A stretch of DNA of 49,865 nt. It comes from a virus. Its lineage: Duplodnaviria; Caudoviricetes. The notes below the pieces were generated by a model. It worked only from the letters and a program-made list of their open reading frames with translations. It ran no database searches and was not told where the DNA came from. Shown piece after piece: positions 30,729 to 43,609 of this stretch (the stretch's first letter is position 1; each line of letters opens with the position of its first letter). Position numbers and translations under genes: made by a program. The stretch is from positions 1 to 49,865 of the IMG/VR virus record IMGVR_UViG_3300031716_000015. One strand, given 5' to 3'.

Positions 30729-30902
30729 TCAGCTCCTCGCGGTCGGTGCGGGCGTGGGGACGCATTCGGTGTGGACCAGGCCGAGCGGCTTGCGGGACCA
30801 CACGCTGGCCTGGCCGGTAAAGATGCCGCGGCCGCAGATCGAGCACACGGCTTTGCGCTGGTCGACGCCGACGGTGGCTTGGACGGACGGTCGGATGCCC
30901 AT
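30729..30902 (-). CDS. Small Zn-binding protein
   Basis: CSICGRGI..G...VHTEC. Confidence 0.55.
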   Translation of the reverse strand: MGIRPSVQATVGVDQRKAVCSICGRGIFTGQASVWSRKPLGLVHTECVPTPAPTARS

Positions 30903-31549
30903 CACGCCACCGCCGCGCTCAGGTGGGCGATCAGCTGCTCGCCGATGAACTGCGTGTAAGCGGGCGGAATCGCCTGGGACAGCTCTCCGCGGTTCATCCA
31001 GTCGATGCCCATGGCCCGCCGGTAGTCGGCGATGGTCGGGTTGTAGCCGAGCTTCTCGCGGACCCAGGACGGCGTGCCGTGGCCGACGACGGACGGCACC
31101 GGGTACGGGTGGTGGCACGGCGGCGAAAGCTGGTATCCGCGCCAGGACGTCTCGAACCAGCGCTCGCGGCGCAGGTCGAGCCCGAATTGGCAGCCGCACA
31201 GCTTGAAGTCGGCCCGCATGGGTGCGCCGGGCACGTTCTCGATCGCCCACGGCCTGCCGATCGACAGGAGCAGTGCCCGGGTGGGGTCGAGCAGGTCGGG
31301 ATACTCCTTGCCGGCGCTGCGCTGCGATTGCGCCGCGACGCTGTATGCCTGGCACGGCGGCGAGGCGTGGATGGCGTCGAACTCGTGGCCGTGCTCGGCG
31401 AGGTATTCGAGGGCGTCGCCGAGGTGGTGTTCGAACGGGTATCGCGGCTGCGGGTTGATGTCGACGCCGACGACCTCGAAGCCGGCACGGTGGTAGCCCA
31501 TGGCGCAGCCGCCGGCTCCGGAGTAGAGGTCGAGCAGTCGCGGCGCCAT
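30902..31549 (-). CDS. DNA cytosine-C5 methyltransferase (compact)
   Basis: LDLYSGAGG (I), SPPCQ (IV), IENV (VI), RRER (VIII), QAIPP (X-like). Confidence 0.88.
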   Translation of the reverse strand: MAPRLLDLYSGAGGCAMGYHRAGFEVVGVDINPQPRYPFEHHLGDALEYLAEHGHEFDAIHASPPCQAYSVAAQSQRSAGKEYPDLLDPTRALLLSIGRPWAIENVPGAPMRADFKLCGCQFGLDLRRERWFETSWRGYQLSPPCHHPYPVPSVVGHGTPSWVREKLGYNPTIADYRRAMGIDWMNRGELSQAIPPAYTQFIGEQLIAHLSAAVA

Positions 31550-31815
31550 CACGCCACCTCGTCTGGTTCGATCGCGCATCCCGGGCACCAGGTAGTGCCG
31601 TGGCAGGCCGGGCAGCCAGGAGACGCGGCGCGCAGCTTCCCGCAGTAGCAGGAGCCGACGCGGGCGAGGTCTTCGCGGCACGACGGCCCGATCGGCGACC
31701 ACGGGTTCGGGCTGCGGTAGTCGCGGTTGCCCAGCGCCCAGTCGCACAGGTCGGCCCAGCATTGGCCGGGGAGTTTGTCGAGCAGGTTCGCGATACGCCA
31801 GCGGAGCTTCTCCAT
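31549..31815 (-). CDS. Cys-rich hypothetical protein
   Basis: GQCWADL..WA...CYCGK; TGATG overlaps. Confidence 0.6.
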   Translation of the reverse strand: MEKLRWRIANLLDKLPGQCWADLCDWALGNRDYRSPNPWSPIGPSCREDLARVGSCYCGKLRAASPGCPACHGTTWCPGCAIEPDEVA

Positions 31816-32450
31816 CAGGCCACCTCCTCGGTGAGGACGCCCCACGGCAACTGGCGCTCGGCTTCGTCGAGCCAGTCCAGCAGCGTGGGCAGGTTGCGGT
31901 CGGGGCCGAACGCCAGGTAGGTCCCGTCGCAGGAGTCGCAGCCGATCGCGGCGGCGTACTGCAACCGCCGCCAGGAGTTGACGCGGCCCATGTGGACCCA
32001 CTTGCCGCGCACCTTTGCCTCGCGGGCGATGAGGGCGGCAGCGGGCGACAGCTTCCAGTCGGTGCTGCCCGCGATGAACAGGACGTCGAAGTCGTCCCAC
32101 GGCACCGTGAGGTCTTCGAGGCCGTCCTGGGCGCACAGCGCGACGGGATAGCCGAGGGCGCGGATGCGGGGAAGCATCGGCGCGGACAGCTTTAGCGTGG
32201 CGGCGGCGCCGAAGGGAACGTCGGGTGCGACAGCGAAGGCGCACTCGGCGACCATCGGTAGCCGGTCGGTGAGCCAGGCCAGGTAGGCGTCGTCGCCGGG
32301 ATAGCCGCCGGTAAAGGCGGCGTTGTCGGCACACCAGCGGCGTCCGGGCTCTAGCCGGTTGCCGGTGGCCGGGGTGACGATCTGGCCGAGGAGTCCGCAG
32401 TCCATGGCGGCCCTAACCTTCGGCCCGCTGGCCGTGGCGAAGTACTCCAC
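31815..32450 (-). CDS. DpdA-like (TGT-fold) 7-deazaguanine DNA transglycosylase
   Basis: DNAAF, APDV, QDG, FIAGST.WK, HMGRVN, DSCDGT motifs; adjacent to YhhQ. Confidence 0.7.
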   Translation of the reverse strand: MEYFATASGPKVRAAMDCGLLGQIVTPATGNRLEPGRRWCADNAAFTGGYPGDDAYLAWLTDRLPMVAECAFAVAPDVPFGAAATLKLSAPMLPRIRALGYPVALCAQDGLEDLTVPWDDFDVLFIAGSTDWKLSPAAALIAREAKVRGKWVHMGRVNSWRRLQYAAAIGCDSCDGTYLAFGPDRNLPTLLDWLDEAERQLPWGVLTEEVA

Positions 32451-32940
32451 GTCCCACCACCACTGCGCTGACGACCACCACTGTGGCGGTGGTCTTGACG
32501 AACATCTGGCCAGGCACGGCGGGCCAGATAGGGAAGCCAGCCAGCCAAAGGAAAAGCACCGTGTCCACGGCGGAGCCGACCAGGTTGGACGCGACAGCGG
32601 CCGTTGCCCAGCCGTGACGGCGCAGCGGCGAGTAGACGGCGAAGTCCGCCAACTCGGAGACCGCGAACGCGGCCCCGGACGCAAGCGCGAGTTGGGGTGT
32701 GGCCAGCAGCGCCGACAGGGCGGCCCCGCCGACGATGCAGGCGAGGACGGCGACCCGTCCGGCGGTCTCGTGGACGGCGTCGCGGGCCAGGAGCACCAGC
32801 CCGGCGGCCCAAGTGCCAGCCGTCGCCGACAGGCCGAAGCCGACGGGTACGAAGCCGTAGCGGGCGGTCAGGACGTTCGCGGCGACGGCGAGGCCGAGGA
32901 ACGCGACCGTCGACCAGAAGCGCAACAGGAAGTTGGTCAT
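32413..32940 (-). CDS. yhhQ: VUT family (YhhQ-like) queuosine-precursor transporter
   Basis: AAN, RD.V.E..G, ALASG.AF.VSE.AD..VY, SN.VG..VDT.LFL.LA, GQ..VK; multiple TMs. Confidence 0.85.
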   Translation of the reverse strand: MTNFLLRFWSTVAFLGLAVAANVLTARYGFVPVGFGLSATAGTWAAGLVLLARDAVHETAGRVAVLACIVGGAALSALLATPQLALASGAAFAVSELADFAVYSPLRRHGWATAAVASNLVGSAVDTVLFLWLAGFPIWPAVPGQMFVKTTATVVVVSAVVVGRGVLRHGQRAEG

Positions 32941-33182
32941 CACGCCACCTCGTCGTTCGGGTCGGTCCACGGCCGCAGCGTCAGCCGGGGATAGCGGCGC
33001 GGTGCCGGGGGCAGCGACGTCGAGTCCGGCGTTAGGGCGGCTGCGGCCACCTGGGCGAGTTGGGCGGGGATGACGGCCTCGTCCGGGTAGGACGTGACGG
33101 CGTTGTGGCCGAGAATGGCGGCGGCCTGCTTGTGGGTGTAGGGCGTCGGCGCGGCGGGGATCGGCGTCGGGTCAGCGGTCAC
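32940..33182 (-). CDS. Hypothetical Pro-rich protein
   Basis: Overlapping start/stop. Confidence 0.5.
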   Translation of the reverse strand: MTADPTPIPAAPTPYTHKQAAAILGHNAVTSYPDEAVIPAQLAQVAAAALTPDSTSLPPAPRRYPRLTLRPWTDPNDEVA

Positions 33183-37678: not shown

Positions 37679-37724
37679 TCGTTCACACCGAAGAGGTCGC
37701 GTGTTCGATCCACGCATCGCCCAC
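37679..37724 (+). other. attP core: 3' half of tRNA-Val(CAC)
   Basis: TCG-TTCACAC-CGAAG-AGGTC-GCGTG-TTCGATC-CACGC-ATCGCCCA: anticodon loop, T arm and acceptor 3' strand; no 5' half. Confidence 0.85.
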
Positions 37725-39682: not shown

Positions 39683-40082
39683 GTTGATCGCCTTTCTCCG
39701 GCGCATGCTCGACGCCGATGAGGCACGGGCGAGGGCCGCTACTCCGGGCCCGTGGCGACACAACCCGGACAAGCATTGGCGCAAGCCCGGTACGTCGTGG
39801 TTCGAGGAGGCCGTGTTTGCTGGTGCTCCCGGAGCTGACGCGACCTGCGTCGCTGGGACCGGCGAGACTGACGACCCGCAAAGCATGGCCGACGCCGACC
39901 ACATCGCCCGCCACGACCCGGCGCGCGTCCTCGCCGACGTCGCCGCCAAGCGGGCAATTCTGAACGCGGCCGTGATGCTGCTCGTGGACGACGCAGAAGA
40001 CGAGGAAGCCGCCGAGATCGTGAAGAACCTGGCGCTGCCGTACGCCGACCACCCCGATTACCAGGAGTCGTGGCGGCCGTGA
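39675..40082 (+). CDS. DUF6221-like protein
   Basis: LIAFLR..LD.DE, HIARHDPARVLADVAAKRAIL, LALPYADHPDYQE.WRP. Confidence 0.85.
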   Translation: MDELIAFLRRMLDADEARARAATPGPWRHNPDKHWRKPGTSWFEEAVFAGAPGADATCVAGTGETDDPQSMADADHIARHDPARVLADVAAKRAILNAAVMLLVDDAEDEEAAEIVKNLALPYADHPDYQESWRP

Positions 40083-40348
40083 GCGACGCCATCACCATGG
40101 TCATCGGCAGCGGCGAGGCGTGCGACCTCCGCGTCGACGACCCGTACGCTTCGCCTCGCCACGCGGCAATCACGCGGCGCGCCAACGGCACCTACTGGAT
40201 CGAAGACCTCGGCTCCACCAACGGCACCCGAATCTTCCGCGGCCAGGGCGACGCCTTCGGCACGAAGGTCTACGGACCGACACCGCTCATGCGGGGCGAT
40301 GTCATACGCATCGGGCGGACGCCGATCCCTTGGACGCCGCCCGCCTAG
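40079..40348 (+). CDS. Stand-alone FHA domain protein
   Basis: IGS...CDL...D.Y.S.RHA.I...W.IEDLGSTNGT...L..GDVIRIG. Confidence 0.9.
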   Translation: MSDAITMVIGSGEACDLRVDDPYASPRHAAITRRANGTYWIEDLGSTNGTRIFRGQGDAFGTKVYGPTPLMRGDVIRIGRTPIPWTPPA

Positions 40349-40410: not shown

Positions 40411-40680
40411 TTGCTCACATCCGAAGAGCTGGAACAGCTCGCCACCGAACTCCTTGACTTCATCACCGAACGCGCAGGCGACCTCGTGGCCGACCGCGAC
40501 GACGCGTACGCCTGGCTGACCGCCGCGCTGGAGGTCGACGCCGGCTTGCGGCGGGTCGCGCCGCGTGTGTCCAGTGCGCTGGACGGGCGTGCGCTGCGGG
40601 AGGGCATGTCGCAGGCGGCTATCGCGCGGGCGCGGGGTACGTCGCGGCAGGCGGTCAACGGGCGCGTCAGGGCGTCTTGA
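40411..40680 (+). CDS. C-terminal HTH protein
   Basis: GMSQAAIARARGTSRQAVNGR; GGAGG upstream of TTG. Confidence 0.7.
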   Translation: MLTSEELEQLATELLDFITERAGDLVADRDDAYAWLTAALEVDAGLRRVAPRVSSALDGRALREGMSQAAIARARGTSRQAVNGRVRAS

Positions 40681-40688
40681 CGTACGCT

Positions 40689-41198
40689 GTAGCCCGGATT
40701 GCATCGGAGGTGACCGTGGCGCAGAGGCTGTACCTGGCGGACCTGCAGGAGCGTTACGGCGCTCCGAAGGGGACGGTGCTGGCGTGGCGGCGCCGCGGTC
40801 TGCTGCCTGCGGAGGACGGCACCGAGGCCGACCGCGGGCATGTGCGCCCGTACTGGCTTGAGTCCACTCTGTCCGATTGGTCGCCGCCGCGCGCACGCTC
40901 TGTGAGCTGACTGGCCGCTCCGGCGTGTCCGATTCGCCCTGTGGATCATAACGGGACGGTAACGCAATCCGGGTTGCCCAAGTTTGGACGTCAGCCGGTC
41001 GGCCAAGCTTGCAATCCGGATTGCGCCTGTAACTGCCCGCGAGGTGCAACCAGACTTACGTGTCCGCATTGGACGGTTGCCCAGCGTGAGAATCCGGCCG
41101 ATTTGGCACGCGCGTTCGACGCTATAGGCGCTGACCAGGGAGCGCCTCCGCCGACGCCCAGGTCAGAGGTGGTGGACGTGATGCAATCCGGATTGCAT
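40689..41198. promoter_or_regulatory. Palindromic operator GCAATCCGGATTGC, repeated
   Basis: 41011-41024 and 41183-41196 perfect; 40964-40977 one mismatch; 40689-40702 degenerate. Confidence 0.75.
40716..40910 (+). CDS. AlpA/MerR-like small DNA-binding protein
   Basis: GTVLAWRRRGLLP..D......PYW..STL..W; RBS GGAGG. Confidence 0.7.
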   Translation: MAQRLYLADLQERYGAPKGTVLAWRRRGLLPAEDGTEADRGHVRPYWLESTLSDWSPPRARSVS

Positions 41199-41208
41199 GC
41201 TTGTGGAC

Positions 41209-41457
41209 ATGACCGATGAAGCACGCCGCCAAGCCGCCGAGATCCTGTCCGCCGCCGCCGACCAGTACCGCATCAACCAGGCCCACGCCGAAGCGCTCAT
41301 CGCCAACGCCGACGAACGCTGCGACTGCCCCGCCGAAGAGTGCGACTGCCCGACCCCCGACGAGATGCGCGCCGACGCGAGCACCCGCGCCACCCTCGCC
41401 AACGCCGCCGCGACCATGGCACTCGCGATGGTCACCTTCCTCACCCCGAAGGAGTAG
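41209..41457 (+). CDS. Hypothetical protein (CDC..ECDC)
   Basis: Probably leaderless; TGGACG and CATGCT elements flank an operator. Confidence 0.65.
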   Translation: MTDEARRQAAEILSAAADQYRINQAHAEALIANADERCDCPAEECDCPTPDEMRADASTRATLANAAATMALAMVTFLTPKE

Positions 41458-41461
41458 AGCC

Positions 41462-41731
41462 ATGGACCGCACCGAACTGGCCCGCCGCCTCGCCGACGTG
41501 CACGCAGTCGCCGATTCCCTCGCCGAGCAGATGCGCGAGAAGGAGCGCCAGGCCGTCGTCCTCGCCAACGGCTGGGCCCTCGAAGCGCTCGCGAGCGCCC
41601 TGACCGACCGGCTCAAGCAGTTCGCCGCCGACTACGAGGTCGAGCTGACCGACGACGTGGTTCGGGGTGTGTGGCTCGCCTCGCAGCTGGTACTCGACCT
41701 CGACCCCGACCAGATGCTCGCCGACAACTGA
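41462..41731 (+). CDS. Hypothetical helical protein
   Basis: RBS AAGGAG. Confidence 0.65.
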   Translation: MDRTELARRLADVHAVADSLAEQMREKERQAVVLANGWALEALASALTDRLKQFAADYEVELTDDVVRGVWLASQLVLDLDPDQMLADN

Positions 41732-41751
41732 CCTACCGATAGGAGAGCACC

Positions 41752-41952
41752 GTGAAGCACCAGGTCGAGTACCGCGATGTCGTCGCCGTCGAACGCGTCC
41801 GCGACGGGGCCGTGCAGCGCACCCGGCTCATCTCCCGCTCGCAGGTGTCGGCCCGGGTCCGCTGGGCGGCGGGCGGCGAGGTGGAGCAGGTGTTCTTCGA
41901 CGATCCGGCGCTGCGGTTCCTGACGGCGGCCGAGGCGCGCCGGGCGTCCTGA
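41752..41952 (+). CDS. Hypothetical protein
   Basis: RBS AGGAG; followed by a terminator. Confidence 0.6.
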   Translation: MKHQVEYRDVVAVERVRDGAVQRTRLISRSQVSARVRWAAGGEVEQVFFDDPALRFLTAAEARRAS

Positions 41953-41962
41953 CCCCGGACAC

Positions 41963-42005
41963 AACGAAAGCCCCCGCGGCCTCACGGCAGCGGGGGCTTC
42001 GTTTT
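41963..42005. terminator. Bidirectional terminator
   Basis: AAGCCCCCGC...GCGGGGGCTT flanked by AACG and CGTTTT, between convergent genes. Confidence 0.75.
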
Positions 42006-42007
42006 GG

Positions 42008-42139
42008 TCAGATCGACGAGCTGAACGCGGCCACTTCCACCGGCACAACCGGCTTGGCGCCGACGATGCGGCGGACGACGGCCGCGCGCTGGGCGGCGCT
42101 GATGTCGGCCAGCTTCGGGCGGGGCTGGGTGCTCGGCAT
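42008..42139 (-). CDS. FxSxx-COOH-type RiPP precursor-like peptide (43 aa)
   Basis: MPSTQPRPKLADISAAQRAAVVRRIVGAKPVVPVEVAAFSSSI*; -10 TATCCT 6 nt upstream; terminator downstream. Confidence 0.75.
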   Translation of the reverse strand: MPSTQPRPKLADISAAQRAAVVRRIVGAKPVVPVEVAAFSSSI

Positions 42140-42159
42140 GGCGCCAGGATACGCCGATG

Positions 42160-42404
42160 CAGAAGCGCCCCCGGCCCGAAGGCTGGGGGCGCAACGCTGG
42201 GCGTCCGGGAGTCCGAGACCCTTGTCCAGGAGCGGCCTGGATTCACGCCGCCGAACCGGCGCAGCTTGTCTGGGGAGACGGTGTCCCGCCGTCAGGCTGG
42301 CGCAGTCGCGTCGACTCGACCGCTTGGCCCTTCCCGGGTCCCCGACGTACTGATCTGCGGCCGTCGCCGCACCCTTCCGCCGAGCGCGTTGGCGCCGCTC
42401 CCCG
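42160..42404 (-). ncRNA. Putative structured noncoding RNA or leader (~245 nt)
   Basis: -10 TATGCT at 42411-42416; several nested stems; ends in a cUUCGg hairpin (42165-42192); no credible ORF. Confidence 0.45.
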
Positions 42405-42442
42405 CCGAAGAGCATACACCGGGGCCACGACGGAACCGGCCA

Positions 42443-42473
42443 TTGACACCGCCGCTTAGTACGTGCGTACGAT
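42443..42473 (+). promoter_or_regulatory. Promoter TTGACA-N19-TACGAT overlapped by an SOS-box-like palindrome
   Basis: TAGTAC-GTGC-GTACGA at 42457-42472; GTG start 6 nt after the -10. Confidence 0.5.
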
Positions 42474-42479
42474 TCGAGG

Positions 42480-42734
42480 GTGCTGGAACAGCGGCCCGAC
42501 GGCAGCGTCCGCGAGATCCCGCCCGAGCAGTGCTCGGCGCCGGACTGCGGCCAAACCCTGCTACGGCCCGGCTGGGGCGAATGCCCGCAAGACCGCTGCG
42601 GCAAAATGGGCCGCACCTACACCTGCGACGCCGGGCACATCACCATGGCGTCGTGGCACGAGCACCGCGTCGTCCCCGACGAGCGGCCCCGATGGCACTG
42701 CGGCTACGAGGACCCGAGCAGTTCGTCGAAGTAG
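42480..42734 (+). CDS. Small Cys/His-rich (zinc-ribbon-like) protein
   Basis: C....C, C....C, C..GH; own promoter. Confidence 0.65.
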   Translation: MLEQRPDGSVREIPPEQCSAPDCGQTLLRPGWGECPQDRCGKMGRTYTCDAGHITMASWHEHRVVPDERPRWHCGYEDPSSSSK

Positions 42735-42886
42735 CCCGACTGCACTGCCGCCGCGAACCGGCGCACCTCGTCAGCCGTCACCGGCGTCGAACCCTCCGCC
42801 TGATTGCTGGACAGCAGCAGACCGCCGCCCGGCTGGGACTCCAGCGAGATGCAGCCCGAGGCCTCGCAAGGGGTCGTCAGCTTCAC
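42704..42886 (-). CDS. DUF397-like protein
   Basis: C..SGCI.L......L.SS.......VT.DE.R.F..AV.SG.FD; GTGA overlap with the holin-like gene. Confidence 0.65.
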   Translation of the reverse strand: MKLTTPCEASGCISLESQPGGGLLLSSNQAEGSTPVTADEVRRFAAAVQSGYFDELLGSS

Positions 42887-43113
42887 GGCTTTGCCGTCAC
42901 CGGGACCAGTCGGCGGACGAAGTAGGCGACACCTGCGGTGAGCACGCTCTTCGCCACCAGGCCGCCGACGACGAGCCAATACTCCTTCGTCCAGCGGATG
43001 TCGGTGAACGCGGTGGCGAGGACGACGACGACGGCCGTAGCGACATCGAGGCCGAGGCCCATCAGGAACGTGCGGACCGCGAGCGGCTTCGGGGCATGCG
43101 GGTCTTGCGGCAT
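42883..43113 (-). CDS. Holin-like membrane protein
   Basis: Two TMs, A.RTF..GL..DV motif. Confidence 0.65.
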   Translation of the reverse strand: MPQDPHAPKPLAVRTFLMGLGLDVATAVVVVLATAFTDIRWTKEYWLVVGGLVAKSVLTAGVAYFVRRLVPVTAKP

Positions 43114-43415
43114 CACGAACTCCCTTCGTCCAGATTGGTCAACTGCGCCCGCAGCATCAGCCACCAGCGCCAAGCCAAGCCCACAGCCAGCGCCACGAAC
43201 ATCACCAGCCGCACGATCAGCTGCCCGGGGAAGCCCTCGCCGAACACCAGCGCCAGCATCCGCAGCCCGAACAGGCCCGTCACCCCGGCCGTCACCAGCA
43301 TCACGTTCTGGCCCTCAGCCGAACTCCGCCACGGCGCCAGCGTGTGATACGTCGCCATGAACACCAGGCCGGCGAAGAACGCGAACACGCCGACGACGTT
43401 GATGAGCGTGGTCAC
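43113..43415 (-). CDS. Putative holin (3 TM)
   Basis: Y...APW.SS..G.N.M, FPG; three hydrophobic helices. Confidence 0.7.
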   Translation of the reverse strand: MTTLINVVGVFAFFAGLVFMATYHTLAPWRSSAEGQNVMLVTAGVTGLFGLRMLALVFGEGFPGQLIVRLVMFVALAVGLAWRWWLMLRAQLTNLDEGSS

Positions 43416-43609
43416 CGGTGCCCCCTGAAAGCCGCGTTGATCCTCGGCGCGAACTGGTTGATCTCGCGCAACCGGCGCAGTTGGCTGGCCAGCGAGCGGA
43501 TCTCGCGGTCCTGGGCATGTGCCTGGTCGAGGCGCCGCTGGGCGTCGGCGACGCCCTGCTTCATATCCTGGGCACGGTCGCGTCCGAACAGTCTGGTCAG
43601 CCAGCTCAT
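43412..43609 (-). CDS. Small lysis-cassette protein
   Basis: Amphipathic N-terminus, coiled coil, N.F...I..AF. Confidence 0.65.
   Translation of the reverse strand: MSWLTRLFGRDRAQDMKQGVADAQRRLDQAHAQDREIRSLASQLRRLREINQFAPRINAAFRGHR

Follow-up and report, generated by a model that had tools for sequence, protein, structure and literature searches.

Locus and genome

A 43-codon fxsA-like gene lies past the lysis genes, as a moron-like unit, in the viral genome IMGVR_UViG_3300031716_000015, the whole of which (49,865 bases, 69% G+C) makes up the window analysed here (Table 1); fxsA-like genes occupy a similar position in L135, L032 and L077. The ends of the genome are terminally redundant (129 of 130 bases identical), its completeness was rated at 100%, and its gene set comprises terminase, portal, capsid, tail tube, integrase, repressor-like, holin and glycoside-hydrolase endolysin genes. 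It is the complete genome of a temperate tailed phage of soil origin with an actinomycete host, the temperate lifestyle being deduced from the integrase, the repressor-like genes and a tRNA-Val-like attP. The early region also holds a cytosine methylase-like match and a match to Vut_1 (queuosine-precursor transporter-like), and the accessory region a stand-alone FHA-domain protein (E 3e-16), a possible modulator of, or decoy in, phosphothreonine signalling.

Table 1. Coordinates of the fxsA-like gene, its surroundings and other features of the window
Feature	Position	Strand	Basis or remark
Cytosine methylase-like match	30902-31762	-	early region
Vut_1 match	32413-32970	-	early region
tRNA-Val-like attP piece (3' half)	~37679-37724		tRNA identity by eye from sequence
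FHA-domain protein	40070-40348	+	accessory region
GC-rich hairpin with A/T-rich arm ends, 3' of the fxsA stop (-33.6 kcal/mol)	41963-42003	.	folding test
fxsA-like gene, 43 aa (P0001), ATG start	42008-42139	-	ORF listing, profiles, gene calls
C-terminal core VAAFSSSI	42011-42034	-	sequence; alignment
Leader segment L10...VVRRIV26, common to Micromonosporaceae FxsA	42062-42112	-	
Upstream part of the 202-aa shadow ORF, non-gene	42140-42616	-	codon statistics; closed early in L140; no Pfam match
TATCCT, -10-like hexamer, 6 nt upstream of the ATG	42146-42151	-	motif test
Hairpin upstream of the fxsA promoter (-29.3 kcal/mol)	42165-42192	-	folding test
Non-coding stretch, candidate small RNA	~42170-42410	-	conserved with L140
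Cys-rich 84-aa gene	42444-42734	+	conserved in L140
Two small convergent genes beside fxsA, order kept in L140	42480-42886	.	no Pfam/PHROG match
~60-aa gene	42704-42886	-	conserved in L140; no Pfam match

The 43-codon gene and its expression signals

The encoded peptide ends in ...AVVRRIV...VEVAAFSSSI, and public gene callers predicted exactly the 43-aa product. An earlier sequence-only reading had described the ORF as hidden at the end of a longer shadow ORF and as having the C-terminus VAAFSSSI; the first point was confirmed by its place at the 3' end of a 202-aa ORF (42008-42616) and the second by the translated ORF. A 202-aa gene was considered and rejected, since the upstream codons are non-coding in their statistics (GC2 0.70 and GC3 0.75, against 0.56 and 0.95 for the peptide) and since the shadow frame, open for 159 codons in the window, is closed after only 42 codons in L140, a 2-kb phage-like metagenome contig with the same three-gene order. 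Within the peptide, a cyclophane is predicted between Phe39 and Ser41. Neither Pfam nor PHROGs matched the peptide, nor did PADLOC.

The TATCCT element may direct a leaderless transcript. The motif TANNNT stands 5-8 nt upstream of 6 of the 991 ATGs in the window (0.6% background), and L140 has TACGCT in the same place with equal spacing to the ATG. The hairpin 3' of the gene, which separates it from the convergent gene 41752-41952 (+), is likely to be a bidirectional terminator, and the upstream hairpin probably insulates the fxsA promoter; in L140 the hairpin at the corresponding position is a different one and has a T-run. A strict consensus scanner returned 0 promoters and 0 terminators in 40500-43500, and the promoter and terminator calls rest on a separate motif and folding test, by which the leaderless -10 and the terminator of the sequence-only reading were recovered. 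Contigs from three other studies (X3, X4, X5) span the gene partly or wholly with 1-2 differences, which is evidence of presence only.

Comparison with L140 showed that the -10, start, frame and stop are kept through 3- and 9-nt indels while the flanks have diverged. The 31 codons compared hold 6 amino-acid-changing and 2 silent differences, and these counts give no dN/dS sign of purifying selection; selection on fxsA is indicated instead by indels that preserve the frame and by retention of the start and stop. The neighbouring Cys-rich gene, preceded by TTGACA...TACGAT positioned for a leaderless GTG start, has no family match and zinc-ribbon-like leads only, and the ~60-aa gene presumably resembles DUF397 proteins. 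Three weak loci were all that a scan with the neighbouring ORF returned. The conserved non-coding stretch, which may encode a small RNA, has TATGCT at its start, hairpins in common with L140 and a terminator-like end immediately ahead of the fxsA promoter; Rfam returned nothing significant in 41900-42500.

Similarity of the peptide to FxsA precursors

TIGR04268 was the sole NCBIfam match to the peptide among 18,950 models (16.2 bits, E 0.0097). In this check against the FxSxx-COOH model, proposed in the sequence-only reading, the score lies below the curated cut-off of 28 bits, which true host precursors fail to reach as well. None of five such precursors reached 28 bits (25.4, no match, no match, 25.4 and 26.2), and as all five are FxsB-adjacent, the cut-off is too strict for this FxsA subfamily. 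On a profile built from 80 host precursors only, the peptide scored 38.6 bits, the top of 953 six-frame window segments (E 1.4e-10 for the whole segment; runner-up 0.027), a score reached by 0 of 1000 leader-only shuffles (maximum 28.1) and 0 of 1000 full shuffles. Its leader is homologous to host FxsA leaders by this score and by a 98/99 clade with host precursors, and its length and end (43 aa, FSSSI at the stop) agree with those of FxsA, which is ~40-60 aa long with F-x-S-x-x at the stop. By these sequence comparisons the peptide is an FxsA (FxSxx-COOH) homologue, and the earlier description of it as FxSxx-COOH precursor-like stands on the host-only profile, the shuffles and the tree. A chance ORF with an FxS-like end is very improbable: the peptide does fall under the TIGR04268 cut-off, and a shorter motif scan gave mostly chance matches (19 of 23), but the profile score, the shuffles, conservation in L140, the gene calls and the placement in the tree counter this reading, which we regard as refuted.

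In protein databases the closest entries are P0002 (FXSXX-COOH protein by its source name), P0004 and P0005, and Phe and Ser are conserved in the four closest whole-sequence relatives, P0002-P0005. A 23-row profile retrieved 720 proteins, many of them annotated FxSxx-COOH among the 120 listed; V36, A37, F39 and S41 are invariant in a 23-row alignment, 16 of whose rows came from core-pattern scans. The top ESM Atlas matches were FxSxx-COOH clusters (0.78-0.81), which we treat as a lead only. Peptides of the window clade are 39-45 aa long, against ~50-61 aa in hosts, and have mostly Ser or Gly at the middle core position, where pattern-found host precursors have Asn in 70 of 70, though the pattern permitted Ser. 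Host precursors with FSS or FGS cores do exist next to FxsB, and the argument for a non-modifiable decoy from the FSS core alone was rejected, as hosts carry that core too.

The gene stands alone in the window and in other viruses

No match to TIGR04269, PF04055, NF040586 or NF040588 was found in the complete 49.9-kb genome, the negative for NF040588 being weak, as that search detected nothing in any control genome. The cognate FxsB (radical SAM/SPASM) is absent beside the precursor, and FxsC and FxsT are absent too. The earlier statement that this complete genome holds no maturase was thus upheld for TIGR04269 and PF04055. The searches for the enzyme and sensor genes having found none, the phage locus does not belong to the fxs cluster family.

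A survey of phages for orphan copies, as the sequence-only reading had suggested, turned up 14 further viral records with orphan FxsA-like genes. TIGR04269 matched 0 of the 15 viral records (the window included), 8 of which are at least 90% complete. A degenerate DNA pattern covering the last eight codons and the stop matched 7 viral contigs, and in 7 of 7 the match ends a short FxsA-like ORF that has a leader (L004 is identical to L007). The first looser pattern gave five matches (two repeats and the new L133-L135), another looser pattern three (two repeats and one chance match, none new), and the shorter motif scan 23, made up of one repeat, 19 chance matches and three new ones (L190, L200 and L207); L200 was accepted by eye only, with 4.8 bits on the host-only profile and no TIGR04268 match. 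L228, whose C-terminal FSSSI is that of the window peptide, came from an alignment scan. A 2-row alignment scan of viral contigs gave 51 pattern stretches, none confirmed, and tblastn of 4 peptides against 50,697 cultured-phage records found no relative (one search gave 15 short chance matches). As most viral orphans were found by patterns requiring the F-x-S core, core conservation among them is built in.

The commonest host core is carried unchanged by 9 of the 15 tabulated orphans. A leaderless-type -10 precedes 6 of 13 orphans, and a Shine-Dalgarno-like motif 4 more. They occur in very different phages, including a 113-kb direct-repeat genome, a 53-kb inverted-repeat genome and tRNA-array phages. 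The orphan fxsA often lies in or beside phage tRNA genes (L004, which carries 30 tRNAs, L005, L006, L133, L140 and L228, whose tRNA was identified by eye).

In bacterial genomes the same pattern matched at least 120 loci, 80 of them with flanks; six ending in TGG and not a stop were dropped, leaving 74. The suggested survey of hosts for fxsB loci found an FxsB-type ORF directly downstream in 70 of the 74 matches, as judged by motif (69 by CxxxCxxC, 1 by HExxH). Among the four exceptions, L032 and L077 fall within prophage lysis regions, as judged by eye from their ORFs, and L028 and L029 are bacterial orphans outside obvious prophage lysis regions. The flank of another bacterial orphan copy, L110, is too short to judge.

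A scan with one FxsB protein, by which close relatives only are detectable, found a single viral relative, L188. It lies in a 130-kb viral record with direct terminal repeats (G317), where an FxsB/YhhB-like radical SAM gene (L188:2865-4137; TIGR04269 318 bits, below the cut-off) directly follows a 57-aa ORF that has several F-x-S/N motifs and the end FNSDI. By its gene content, L188 may be a complete phage-encoded triceptide cluster.

Origin of the phage copies and match to the host

A tree was built from 44 peptides (27 host rows, 15 phage or prophage and 2 of unknown context; 48 columns kept), leaving out L028, L029, L200 and L228; its bootstrap had not settled. A single clade of the 15 phage and prophage peptides was rejected (p-AU 3.7e-5), and the phage label changes 12 times on the tree, at least 3 of these changes being forced by supported branches. 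By this tree the phage copies are polyphyletic, pointing to repeated independent capture. Six Micromonosporaceae precursors, all retrieved with the window peptide as query, share a clade (support 98/99) in which the window peptide, L140, P0004 and P0005 are nested. With leaders alone compared against 81 hosts, the prophage orphan L077 (90, next 49) and the orphan L028 (105, next 60) are each closest to their own host's FxsA, and the prophage orphan L032 is not (rank 5 of 81), so that, of the 3 orphans whose host genome is known, 2 have a leader that matches the host. For L002 the closest precursors are of the Kitasatospora type.

A member of the Micromonosporaceae is the likely host of the window phage. 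The attP had no exact match in 151 Micromonosporaceae genomes, most of which match at 85-91% over ~46 nt (a tally of 135 that includes three unpublished genomes, G075, G116 and G147), and its T-stem differs from all 151. Lysis-region DNA matched 3 of 201 Micromonosporaceae and 0 of 201 Streptosporangiaceae genomes; these matches were given little weight, because the best endolysin match examined, L216, sits among chromosomal genes and only 2 candidates were scored per genome.

The host fxs locus and its predicted role

Host locus L176 has the order fxsA, fxsBH, fxsC, fxsT and a convergent alpha/beta-hydrolase gene. The fxsBH product matches TIGR04269 at 541 bits and has an HExxH extension, FxsC (NF040588) is TIR-like, and FxsT (NF040586) joins ParA-like, NB-ARC and TPR parts. 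Of the proteins that the sequence-only reading had assigned to host loci, FxsB, the TIR-like protein and the NTPase/TPR protein were found, and the HEXXH domain is usually fused to FxsB. This domain is of the hydroxylase type rather than a peptidase; the zincin-like 'peptidase' family, as described in PMC12636437, includes alpha-KG hydroxylases. MscB is reported to form a Phe C4-Ser Cbeta cross-link (PMC11002830). In host loci little or no space separates the fxsA stop from the beginning of fxsB. Of 61 Micromonosporaceae genomes sampled, 35 hold an FxsT above its cut-off, frequently with several copies each, and precursors of the window subtype occur in at least 9 of 71 genomes.

At the position that we take to be catalytic in the TIR-like domain of FxsC, Glu is present in 3 of 6 aligned copies. 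The copies without it include L178 and L181, whose precursors rank among the nearest to the window peptide, and the simple picture of suicide by NADase activity is weakened for these loci. Of 12 neighbours of host loci picked by hand, 8 have NACHT, TPR, KAP, HNH, WYL or SLATT domains, a count taken with no background control. The 12 fetched host loci contain no dedicated exporter, and PADLOC has no Fxs-system model beyond generic domain matches.

Section 24 of PMC7159879 predicts that the peptides serve TIR/AP-ATPase/TPR conflict systems as a coupled signal or toxin, and the same source describes STAND NTPases as switched via C-terminal repeats. An antiviral role of the Fxs system is thus a bioinformatic prediction of that paper, and no report showing such a role was found in the literature searched.

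Possible role of the phage peptide

We tentatively favour, at somewhat less than even confidence, the reading that a host-matured FxsA mimic holds the host's NLR-like FxsC/FxsT module off during infection. The phage would carry a stand-alone host FxsA precursor gene without a maturase and transcribe it from the leaderless promoter; the steps that follow are inferred from sequence. Host FxsB would cross-link Phe39 and Ser41 into a cyclophane, and the leader would be removed, possibly by the alpha/beta-hydrolase encoded beside many host loci. The finished peptide would act inside the cell, as suggested by the lack of a dedicated exporter in the 12 fetched loci, and would bind the repeats of FxsT or bind FxsC; TPRs commonly bind C-terminal peptides. 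Under a guard logic, loss of a short-lived host peptide would trip the sensor and the phage copy would replace what was lost, much as phage-borne antitoxin mimics replace lost antitoxin. A host FxsB substrate is the best reading of the host-type leader, the cross-linked residues, the repeated capture and the own promoter, and retention of the leader and of both Phe and Ser makes the choice lean to borrowing of the maturase over a decoy. The sequence does not decide whether the signal is off or on; the guard model is preferred because an unchanged ligand would profit the phage only if the ligand holds the system off. That the Fxs locus is in general a guard-type immune system, its sensor held off by a cyclophane RiPP, and that phages have repeatedly stolen the precursor so that the host radical SAM enzyme makes the silencing signal, is put forward with greater reserve, as a possibility.

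The guard model was ranked ahead of three other readings. If the host peptide is an activating alarm, the phage peptide could be a competitive decoy which, unmodified or abnormally modified, jams FxsB or sits on the sensor but does not set it off. The orphan pattern and host-matching leaders would look the same, and the short peptides of the window clade with their Ser or Gly core would fit, but none of the four close relatives has lost Phe or Ser, nor has L228, FSS and FGS precursors stand beside FxsB in hosts, and the majority of tabulated orphans leave the commonest host core unchanged; we consider a decoy unlikely. Equally unlikely in our view is cargo of the lysogen, by which a prophage boosts or redirects the host Fxs system, not silencing it but excluding rival phages or altering development or hyphal cell death. 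The temperate window phage, the moron-like position shared with L135, L032 and L077, the non-phage orphans L028 and L029 and the ParA/MinD-like domain of FxsT agree with such a role, whereas the occurrence of orphans in phages as different as the direct-repeat, inverted-repeat and tRNA-array genomes speaks against it.

Doubt is greater still for a neutral passenger, a tiny host gene acquired by recombination and not yet lost. The gene is small, the window and L140 show no excess of silent changes, and cultured phages hold no homologue, yet such a passenger accounts poorly for repeated capture from several host families, for the clean separation from fxsB, whose start in hosts coincides with the fxsA stop or lies close to it, for new promoters at 6 of 13 orphans against a 0.6% background, and for a frame, start, stop and -10 kept while the flanking DNA diverged; the scan with one FxsB protein, sensitive to close relatives, also found just 1 viral relative.

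Comparison with known systems

The chemistry of FxsA and FxsB is known, and the biological role of the locus is only predicted, as a conflict system. That unrelated phages repeatedly retain the precursor alone, in host-matched form, gives evidence from nature that this pathway counts when phages infect, and a single 132-bp gene offers a simple handle on the role of the Fxs pathway. If the host-matured mimic is the right reading, it would be a new kind of anti-defence, in which a virus uses a host RiPP maturase, and would link triceptides to bacterial NLR-like immunity. No precedent for a host-matured RiPP counter-defence was found in the literature searched, nor a report of a phage-borne FxsA, subscription chemistry papers being mostly beyond the reach of the search. 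The Mucilaginibacter triceptide of PMC12912966 was considered and set aside as unrelated to Fxs.

The host fxs locus has the same architecture (peptide, radical SAM, TIR-like, ParA-like + NB-ARC + TPR) as the peptide-processing modules that Kaur et al. (2020; PMC7159879) describe for actinobacterial VMAP-ternary and stand-alone AP-ATPase/TPR conflict systems. That account is a prediction and mentions no phage copies, which the source data of the paper could list. Lanthivirins, anti-phage lanthipeptide clusters of Actinobacteria (Shomar et al., 2026, cited in bioRxiv 10.64898/2026.08.26.747419), are alike in that actinobacterial RiPP clusters can be anti-phage; they differ in chemistry and in being host-encoded, and the citing preprint, as far as it describes them, mentions no phage-borne precursor.

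With the FxsA triceptide precursors (TIGR04268, NF040585 SjiA, PF27839) that accompany FxsB/MscB (TIGR04269), the window peptide shares the length class, the leader motif and the C-terminal F-x-S-x-x, and it clusters with precursors that lie immediately before FxsB in host genomes. Unlike in FxsA/FxsB loci, the phage copy is alone, has its own promoter-like element and hairpins and a shorter N-terminus, and lies in a genome that is complete yet lacks FxsB, FxsC and FxsT. T4 Dmd and the ToxI mimics of phage phiTE are phage-encoded antitoxins or antitoxin mimics. The logic proposed here would be shared with them by analogy, the phage supplying the part that keeps a suicide module off; the proposed mimic has no sequence relation to these antitoxins and would differ from them in being a peptide that needs the host's maturase.
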